Of a DNA stretch of 64,000 nucleotides, positions 3,134-4,658 are shown in pieces. Numbering within the stretch: the first letter of the stretch is position 1; the number at the start of each line of letters is the position of its first letter. The notes under the pieces are model-generated. The model was not told the DNA's origin. It saw nothing but the letters and a program-made list of their open reading frames with translations, and did no database searches. Origin of the DNA: Antechinus flavipes (lineage: Eukaryota); NCBI RefSeq assembly GCF_016432865.1, contig NC_067401.1:30256001-30320000 (forward strand). The letters run 5' to 3'. A program made the translations under genes and the position numbers.

Positions 3134-3290
3134 ATGAGTGCCCGGGGCTGCTGGCTGGGGCTGCCGCTGCTGCTGACCGCCGTGGCCGGGGGCCTGGGGG
3201 CCGCCCCCCACCGGGCCAAGAGGGGCTTCACTTACCCGGGCACGCTGTGGTGCGGGGCGGGAAACAACGCCGAGAGCTACGAGCAGCTAG
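3134..3290 (+). CDS. PROCA1: PROCA1/PLA2 exon 1: signal peptide, RAKR propeptide, Ca2+-binding loop
   Basis: [52 protein letters not shown]; donor CTAG|gtgagg. Confidence 0.92.
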
Positions 3291-4658
3291 GTGAGGGGGC
3301 AGAGCGGGCGCCCGGCCAGGGGGTGCCCTGGGTCACAGGTCACAGTTCGCGGCCTCTGCCCGAGGGCTGGAGGCGCAGGGGACGGGCCAGCAGCTGGGCA
3401 GCGGGAGGAGGCGGCGCCGGGCGCAGTCCTCGCCCTTGGGGGGCAGGTACTGGAAGGCGCAGGTTGGGAGGGAGGCGGGGCCTGGGGCCTGGGGGCACTA
3501 AGCTCCCGCCCCCTCCCCCCACCAGGGGAGCTGGAGGAGACAGACAGATGCTGTCGAGAGCACGACCAGTGCCAGCAGGTCATCCACCCCTTCACCATTG
3601 GCTACGGCCACCACAACTTCCGCTGGCACACCATCAGCCACTGCGACTGCGACGCTCGGTGAGCCGGGGGCCTCGGGTCGAAGCGGGGGTCTCGGGTCAG
3701 TGTGGGGGCCTCGGGTCGAAGCGGGGGTCTCGGGTCGGCGCGGTGGTCTCAGGTCGGCACGGGGGTCTCGGGTCGGCGCGGGGGCCTTGGGTCGGGCCGG
3801 GCCCTCCCACCTCGAGGAGGAGTTGGGTGCCCCAGGGGGCCCCTGGGTGGGGTTCCCTGCCTCGGGCTCTGCTTCTCAGTCCCCTCGGAGGGGGGTGGGG
3901 ATGGGAGGGGCGGGGGCCAGGGGCCGGGCTGAGAGCTGGGTGTCTGCAGGCTGAAGGCGTGCCTGCGGCAGGTGAACGACGCGGCGTCCCGAGCCGTGGG
4001 CCAGGCCTTCTTCAACGTCATCCAGGTGCCCTGCTTCGAGCTCACCTACGAGGAGCAGTGTGTGGAGCGCTACTGGTACGGCTGGTGAGTGTGGCCGGCG
4101 CGGGGGCGGGCCGCCCTCCTGGCCCCCTGTACTGGTGCCCTCCCTTCCCTCCGCAGGTGCAAAAGCTACGGGCCCCGGCCGCGGGCAGTGCTGCAGGATC
4201 CCGCGCTCTACGAGTTTGGGGGGCCCACCCTCCGCGTCCCGCCGCCCGGCAGCACCACCCCCCCGGGGCGTCCCCCCCGAAGCCGGAGGGTCCGGCTCCC
4301 CACGGCCACTCAGGGTGGCAAGGGCGCCTGGAAGGGGAAGAAAAAGGAGAAAAGGACCAAGAAAAAGGGCCTCTCGCTGACACCCCCTGGCTGGGAGCCC
4401 CGGCTGGGCAGAGAGCCAGAGGAGGGGAAGAGCTCTGTGCCCCCCGGCCAGGAGGGCGCGGCCCCGGACTGGGGCGCCCAGGACCGCGGCTCTAACGACA
4501 TCCTCCAGGATGAGCTCGAAGCCGAGGGGCCGGCAGGGCCTCCCAGAGCGACCGAGGTCAAGGCCATGGGCCGGTCAAAGGGGAGGAGGAAGGGGCGTCG
4601 AGGGAGGAACGGGCCCGGGAAGAGCGTGGCGCCCTCGACGGGGCCGAGCCTCAGCTGA
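3134..4658 (+). CDS. PROCA1: PROCA1 orthologue encoding an apparently intact secreted group III phospholipase A2 with a basic C-terminal tail (308 aa, 4 exons)
   Basis: join(3134..3290,3526..3658,3950..4084,4157..4658) = 927 nt, all GT-AG, phases 1/2/2. gccATG Kozak context. Signal peptide, [17 protein letters not shown]a loop, [53 protein letters not shown], the Lys-rich tail and the final PSLS match human PROCA1 as recalled. Convergent with SUPT6H as in human synteny. Confidence 0.9.
3526..3658 (+). CDS. PROCA1: PROCA1/PLA2 exon 2: catalytic His-Asp and CDCD
   Basis: ccaccag|GG acceptor; [44 protein letters not shown]; donor CG|gtgagc. Confidence 0.92.
3666..3798. repeat. 19-bp GC-rich minisatellite, 7 copies, in PROCA1 intron 2
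   Basis: Units of GGGGG(C/T)CTCGGGTCG+4 nt, starting 7 nt after the donor. Confidence 0.85.
3950..4084 (+). CDS. PROCA1: PROCA1/PLA2 exon 3
   Basis: tctgcag|G acceptor; [45 protein letters not shown]; donor TG|gtgagt. Confidence 0.92.
4157..4658 (+). CDS. PROCA1: PROCA1/PLA2 exon 4: last Cys plus Pro/Lys/Arg-rich tail
   Basis: ccgcag|G acceptor; [20 protein letters not shown]...[12 protein letters not shown]...GPSLS, TGA at 4656-4658. Confidence 0.88.

Follow-up and report, generated by a model that had tools for sequence, protein, structure and literature searches.

The PROCA1 Locus

The window, by which we mean the whole 64,000-nt stretch of Antechinus flavipes DNA analyzed here, contains a four-exon gene on the + strand whose introns are all of the GT-AG type and lie in phases 1, 2, and 2. 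Its spliced coding sequence of 927 nt specifies 308 amino acids plus a stop, and this product matches, letter for letter, the public entry P0125 ("protein PROCA1 isoform X1"), with dasyurid marsupials as its closest named relatives. The features of the gene and its convergent neighbor are as follows.

3079..3084, + strand: TATA-like element, seen in the sequence 55 nt 5' of the ATG, function presumed
3134..3290, + strand: exon 1, coding part; leader, propeptide, and Ca2+ loop at the beginning of the enzyme core
3134..3202, + strand: putative signal peptide (about residues 1-23), from hydropathy and conservation
3212..3223, + strand: furin-type site R27-A-K-R30, directly before the predicted mature N-terminus G31; putative cleavage
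3248..3262, + strand: Ca2+-binding loop W39-C40-G41-A42-G43, aligning with the bee enzyme loop
3526..3658, + strand: exon 2; His65/Asp66 (3561-3566), Asp95 (3651-3653), Cys 61, 62, 68, 92, and 94
3950..4084, + strand: exon 3; helix with G114-Q-A-F117-F-N, Cys 101, 125, and 134
4157..4658, + strand: exon 4, coding part; Cys143, core end (about residue 163), then a 145-aa tail
4804..4809, + strand: polyadenylation signal AATAAA, seen in the sequence
6064..6309, - strand: SUPT6H 3' end, where its reading frame ends; convergent neighbor and synteny marker

Contigs matching the gene came from four runs (X1, X5, X17, and X22), whose RNA origin is presumed and not on record and whose contigs give no tissue or level; we read them as spliced RNA because the three GT-AG introns are removed precisely. 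All three splice joints were spanned by contigs in three of the four runs (X22, X1, and X5), bearing out the spliced product proposed in the first-pass annotation, exon 1 included, while contigs of X17 bridged joint 2 only. Likeness to the gene was 99+% for the X22 contigs. Contig 5' ends lay at 3001 in X1 and X5 and at 3079 in X22, although contigs cannot show a start, and 3' ends at 4801 (X22) and 4798 (X17), with one X5 contig extending to 4863. An alternative exon 3 donor 9 nt upstream (4076-4084) yields the 305-aa isoform P0007, with three residues fewer between Cys134 and Cys143; contigs of the four runs held the long form only. Some contigs in X1 and X17 read through intron 3 (4085-4156, 72 nt), whose retention places a stop at 4086-4088 right after W142 and leaves a core lacking Cys143 and the tail. 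These contigs may be unspliced RNA. Intron 2 harbors a G+C-rich minisatellite (3665-3795; 19-nt unit, 6.9 copies, 81% matches). PROCA1 is here a real, expressed, and already annotated gene, and its likely enzyme function is under-recognized.

On the same strand as PROCA1, some 3.6 kb upstream, lies the end of RAB34 (nine tblastn pieces, up to 100% identical). On the other side, an upstream exon of SUPT6H (10689-11021) matches Spt6 at E 3.6e-49, and SUPT6H exons extend on the - strand to about 27,700. The order RAB34-PROCA1-SUPT6H is therefore present in the A. flavipes genome, and is presumably also that of the human locus. Elsewhere in the window, G+C content peaks at 36-38, 46-48, and 60-64 kb.

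The Product Carries a Group III Phospholipase A2 Core

According to the first-pass annotation, the product keeps every hallmark of a secreted phospholipase A2 (sPLA2) of group III, and each residue it named was found in its place in the spliced 308-aa protein: the codons of W39 and C40 begin at 3248 and 3251, and those of His65, Asp66, and Asp95 occupy 3561-3563, 3564-3566, and 3651-3653. The core contains 10 Cys (40, 61, 62, 68, 92, 94, 101, 125, 134, and 143), whose pairing into five disulfides we infer, and an 11th, C6, sits in the leader. In an alignment of 88 group III proteins, W39, C40, G41, and G43 of the Ca2+ loop and H65, D66, and D95 were invariant in all 88. His34, Asp35, and Asp64 of bee-venom PLA2 align with His65, Asp66, and Asp95, again in agreement with the earlier claim.

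Family and fold assignments point the same way. Pfam PF05826, with its curated cut-off at 22 bits, scored 129.5 (on the 305-aa isoform P0007), and bee-venom PLA2 was matched at E 6e-22 with the close relative P0005 as query, two bee-venom PLA2 entries being the only solved structures related by sequence. A structure predicted from the 88-sequence alignment reached pLDDT 93-98 for residues 51-160, with low confidence for the tail; prediction from the single sequence gave a pLDDT of only 43. The model superposed on bee-venom PLA2 (Api m 1, PDB 1poc) with Z 17.3 and rmsd 3.5 over 117 residues at 35% identity, the next unrelated row scoring Z 3.0, and Foldseek matched it to the bee-venom PLA2 fold at E 1.1e-12. 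ESM Atlas matches were all under 0.9 and serve as leads only. The PF05826 domain, the Ca2+ loop with Asp66, the His-Asp dyad, the 10-Cys pattern, and the predicted fold were thus all found, as in group III sPLA2s.

The protein shares with the bee enzyme its fold, its catalytic and Ca2+-binding residues, and a short prepro leader. It differs in its 145-aa tail, in being a vertebrate-wide body protein with nothing to suggest a function in venom, and in a single departure within the site, Phe117 for bee Tyr87. Phe at this place is common to jerboa, possum, Anolis, and shark PLA2G3, and the core domain of human PLA2G3 is active in cells (PMC2708930).

A Putative Leader and Processing Site

Judged by 9-residue hydropathy and conservation, residues 1 to about 23 resemble a signal peptide, with a best hydropathy of 2.3 over a short hydrophobic stretch that contains a Pro. 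Values were 2.0-2.9 in 10 of 10 full-length marsupial records. Of the 26 placental records, 24 did not exceed 1.03, and the remaining two have unusual 5' ends. Leader and furin-type site were kept together in all 10 of these marsupial records, and R27 and R30 are conserved in at least 90% of the 88 aligned group III proteins. The 145-aa tail is basic and Pro-rich (31 K+R, 14 D+E, 22 P).

An N-glycosylation sequon at N106 is present in 110 of 118 relatives, and in just 2 of 11 marsupial records; here (N106-D-A, 3975-3983) it is lost, as in 9 of those 11. Human PLA2G3 is reportedly helped in its secretion by glycosylation, and loss of the sequon, together with the short leader, points against easy secretion. 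At the same place in placental records, N-x-S survives despite the missing leader.

The Pro within the short hydrophobic stretch and the lost sequon would suit a marsupial protein that is already partly intracellular, through a weak leader or skipping of exon 1, and intermediate toward the placental state; later starts in marsupial records (wombat P0012, P0154, P0173) would fit as well. We nevertheless regard this as very unlikely, given the exon 1-exon 2 joint in three of four runs, the conserved leader and furin-type site, and the placental N-terminal exons, for which a search of the 6.5 kb upstream found no counterpart (the best candidate was equaled by 18 of 200 shuffles).

Orthology to PROCA1 Rather than PLA2G3

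The genome encodes two PF05826 genes, PROCA1 in the window and a second locus, L002, on C1. Like PLA2G3, L002 possesses both an N- and a C-terminal domain and is of the 7-exon type; it is 87-89% identical to possum PLA2G3 across the core exons and grouped with it at 100/96 in a 60-row core tree. Tandem repeats, seen by eye, lie beside two of its core exons (L002 380-800 and 1675-1815). The window protein has neither the flanking domains nor the 7-exon structure and did not group with PLA2G3. Instead, the 60-row tree joined it with placental PROCA1 at 100/99 within a jawed-vertebrate PROCA1 clade (98/98), and recovered a PLA2G3 clade including L002 at 100/99; two long-branch outgroup rows fell within the PLA2G3 side. 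A 41-row tree under another model, made from the 60 rows minus 7 outgroup and 12 unnamed rows, gave the same main splits with supports of 100/99, 100/99, and 100/97. The RAB34/SUPT6H synteny, the two trees, and the separate PLA2G3 gene support the earlier assignment of the gene to PROCA1 rather than PLA2G3.

Marsupial PROCA1 resembles PLA2G3 in its 10-Cys core, Ca2+ loop, His-Asp dyad, second Asp, and Phe at the bee Tyr87 place, in a dibasic site before the core, and in three intron positions and phases, at 49-54% core identity. It differs in clade, chromosome, and exon number (four), in a core without the N-glycosylation sequon, and in having a basic low-complexity tail instead of the N-terminal and Cys-rich C-terminal domains.

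Could the gene be a marsupial PLA2G3 duplicate sitting at the PROCA1 locus? Placing marsupial PROCA1 with PLA2G3 was 21 log units worse in an AU test on 142 columns, yet at p 0.076 was not rejected at 0.05, and core identity to placental PROCA1 (42-48%) is not above that to PLA2G3. This low identity is explained by the long placental stem branch. Against a duplicate stand the grouping with placental PROCA1 in the best trees under two models, the 68-76% core identity to non-mammalian PROCA1, the RAB34 and SUPT6H neighbors, and the lack of the PLA2G3 C-terminal domain that L002 possesses. The duplicate reading is already largely refuted and seems to us extremely improbable.

In the same AU test, placing placental PROCA1 with PLA2G3 was rejected (p 0.018). 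Placentals, on a long branch, were nested within marsupials, a weakly supported position, and marsupial monophyly was not rejected (p 0.35). The stem branch common to marsupials and placentals was longish (0.20-0.25), which suggests that some change began before the placental stem.

The Intact Core Appears Ancestral

The His-Asp dyad and second Asp were found in 115 of the best 120 of 213 exon 3 matches, from skate to birds, one of the 120 being an isoform of this gene. The dyad was unchanged in all 115 listed relatives that hold the segment. The Ca2+ loop was present in addition in 109 of the best 120; among the 11 without it, 10 have no exon-1 segment at all and are apparently partial models, and the other is P0027. 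Intact relatives span marsupials, birds, turtles, gecko, amphibians, coelacanth, ray-finned fish, and rays. Within marsupials, dyad and second Asp occur in 11 of 11 records and the loop in 10, the wombat model beginning later. The core is 86-99% identical to that of nine full-length marsupial records, compared with 35-72% for the tail, which indicates selection on the enzyme portion.

To gecko, terrapin, frog, coelacanth, zebrafish, and skate PROCA1, core identity is 68-76%, with the same motifs and clade. Fish, frog, and gecko proteins possess a Cys-containing N-terminal domain and longer tails, whereas marsupials have only the leader and a short propeptide and mostly lack the N106 sequon. 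Judged from these sequence comparisons, the enzyme form is the ancestral state of jawed vertebrates. The first-pass annotation had presented an active-type PROCA1 as something the marsupial lineage retains; the intact residue set agrees, but retention is ancestral and common to other marsupials, fish, amphibians, turtles, lizards, and birds. The derived event is therefore the placental loss, and nothing in the marsupial lineage.

Database labels already present non-mammalian PROCA1 as enzyme-like. Carp orthologues are deposited as "group III secreted phospholipase A2-C1/C2" (QCG75791, QCG75792), and UniRef labels many non-placental relatives "phospholipase A2". Chicken PROCA1 is listed in glycerophospholipid pathways, its nature going uncommented in the available portions of the two sources (PMC10379444, PMC13234239).

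Proposed Mechanism of Marsupial PROCA1

Taken together, we assign a probability of roughly 0.8 to the reading that the gene is the marsupial PROCA1 orthologue and encodes a secreted, Ca2+-dependent group III PLA2, activity and secretion being what we infer. The leader would route the protein into the ER, where the five disulfides would form, and a furin-type convertase would cut after R30, so that the mature chain would begin two residues before Y-P-G, as in the bee enzyme. Ca2+ would be held by the carbonyls of W39, G41, and G43 together with Asp66, and His65, backed by Asp95, would activate water for hydrolysis of phospholipids at the sn-2 ester. Tethering of the enzyme to anionic surfaces or matrix is the probable role of the basic tail, a step with less support than the others.

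Alternatively, the protein could keep the secreted group III PLA2 fold mainly as a ligand or matrix-bound factor with weak or no catalysis, its residues being kept for fold and Ca2+. The large basic tail, the sequon and N-terminal domain lost in marsupials, and the inferred status of activity all leave room for such a role, and bee PLA2 binds a receptor as a ligand (PMC2708930). Against this, the catalytic and Ca2+-binding residues are invariant in the 88 aligned proteins and the dyad is unchanged across the 115 listed relatives. Inactive sPLA2-like proteins are usually altered at His or Asp, a further argument for catalysis. We therefore consider a mainly noncatalytic protein unlikely and favor the secreted enzyme.

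Losses in Placental PROCA1

We compared 26 placental records, one per named species, covering Xenarthra, Afrotheria, and Laurasiatheria (armadillo, two elephants, carnivores, hippo, ruminants, and two bats); further isoforms and red-fox P0280, a model without the dyad segment, were left out. His65 was kept in all 26. Position 66 was Lys in 25 and Gln in one, the Ca2+ loop was absent from every record, and position 95 was Asp in 20, Glu in five, and Gly in one. Placental PROCA1, the cyclin A1-interacting protein, remains like the marsupial protein in its exon 2-4 sequence, His65, most Cys, mostly Asp95, and a Lys-rich tail. It differs in lacking the leader and Ca2+ loop, in the Asp66 replacement, in unrelated N-terminal exons, in about eight inserted residues, and in a changed G-Q-A-F helix.

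The earlier suggestion that eutherian PROCA1 became a pseudoenzyme after the marsupial split stands as regards Asp66, the Ca2+ loop, and the leader, all lost, and fails as regards Asp95, which is mostly kept. On residue comparison, the pseudoenzyme reading holds, the losses behind it being Ca2+ binding and the leader rather than Asp95. Armadillo, elephants, and laurasiatherians show the same derived states, which argues for one event on the placental stem. That stem branch measured 1.0 (60-row tree) or 0.79 (41-row tree) changes per column, compared with 0-0.22 for the tips, and the degenerate core is 72-85% identical between armadillo and five other placentals, as conserved as the tail (74-81%), though the leader is missing. 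Fast change followed by renewed constraint points to a new function more readily than to decay. We propose that loss of the leader, Ca2+ loop, and Asp66 on the placental stem was accompanied by fast change and followed by renewed constraint on the protein as an intracellular pseudoenzyme.

The old core region of placental PROCA1 holds 10-13 Cys in the 24 records counted, and a His cluster was gained after the core. Human PROCA1 has been observed in the cytoplasm (PMC9830831), and boar PROCA1 is reported as a sperm phosphoprotein (PMC8322956). It is conceivable, though we hold it only tentatively, that a switch occurred once on the placental stem from secreted enzyme to a cytosolic sperm/testis protein reusing Cys and His, most likely for Zn binding or as a redox-sensitive scaffold.

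A decayed exon 1 in the placental segment before the dyad exon was considered and not supported, 335 of 2000 shuffles being as good as the best match; the hippo row, wrongly cut, is left out of this result. Placental PROCA1 was absent from the best 150 of 1915 matches in a profile search of 1.84 billion representatives and from the 13 matches of an opossum-protein region search; 13 of 17 matches of one search did reach placental records, via exon 3-4 words outside the catalytic sites, and another search added further ones. No listing contained monotreme, primate, or rodent PROCA1, which reflects the reach of the searches and does not argue for absence. RAB34 proteins also occur in the 90% cluster of deer PROCA1 P0284, where a fused RAB34-PROCA1 gene model, or read-through, in some placental genome may have formed the bridge.

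Relation to Earlier Work

A carp paper of 2021 reportedly assayed the carp group III secreted phospholipase A2-C1/C2. Parts of the history described here may already be covered there and in a study of Proca1 knockout mice, which PMC13125504 cites. In the literature searched, as far as its sources were accessible and with most subscription papers outside its scope, no statement was found on the enzyme nature of PROCA1 or on an enzyme-to-pseudoenzyme history. The available sections of a vertebrate PLA2 family survey (PMC4314415) do not include PROCA1, and those of PMC2708930 treat PLA2G3 as the one mammalian group III sPLA2.

If our reading is true, a second group III sPLA2 exists in marsupials and in most other jawed vertebrates under a name derived from a cyclin-binding screen. 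Human PROCA1, which is poorly understood and has been investigated in male infertility and lung cancer, would then be an inactive descendant of this enzyme in another compartment. PROCA1 in chicken, fish, and marsupial expression data would probably denote a lipid-mediator enzyme, automatic PLA2 labels on placental PROCA1 would probably be wrong, and the transition from enzyme to pseudoenzyme would be a dated single step. Should the cytosolic switch be true as well, marsupials would keep the ancestral enzyme in working form, an sPLA2 absent from a mammalian list based on human and mouse, and would offer a clean before/after pair for pseudoenzyme origin and compartment change. What is new is the evolutionary history of a known enzyme type, with no new mechanism, and the part of interest to specialists is the single switch, on the placental stem, of a secreted enzyme into a conserved pseudoenzyme inside the cell.

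PROCA1 and PLA2G3 as Probable Sister Genes

Intron places and the three phases match between the two paralogues, and both have a RAB34-type gene nearby (C4 at 30.25 Mb; C1 at 726.2 Mb, 75% identical exon) as well as multi-exon crystallin genes (C4 at 29.6 Mb; C1 at 709.6-711.0 Mb), although crystallin matches also occur elsewhere in the genome. These neighbors would correspond to RAB36, CRYBA1, and CRYBA4. PROCA1 and PLA2G3 are probably sister genes older than jawed vertebrates that arose from the vertebrate genome doublings. Lamprey and hagfish rows were not placed by either core tree; by motif, P0172, P0182, P0233, P0363, and P0273 appear more PROCA1-like than PLA2G3-like.

Elgaria P0231 and Anolis P0194, both named PLA2G3, fell in the PLA2G3 clade, and lizard venom group III PLA2 may, from this placement, derive from PLA2G3 rather than PROCA1. 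The accessible portion of a venom review (PMC13709620) mentions neither gene. Both lizard proteins are shortened, and Elgaria P0231 sits on a long branch and has Tyr at the bee Tyr87 place. Two unnamed proteins, P0142 (910 aa) and P0265 (268 aa), contain four and three group III PLA2-like stretches per chain, respectively.
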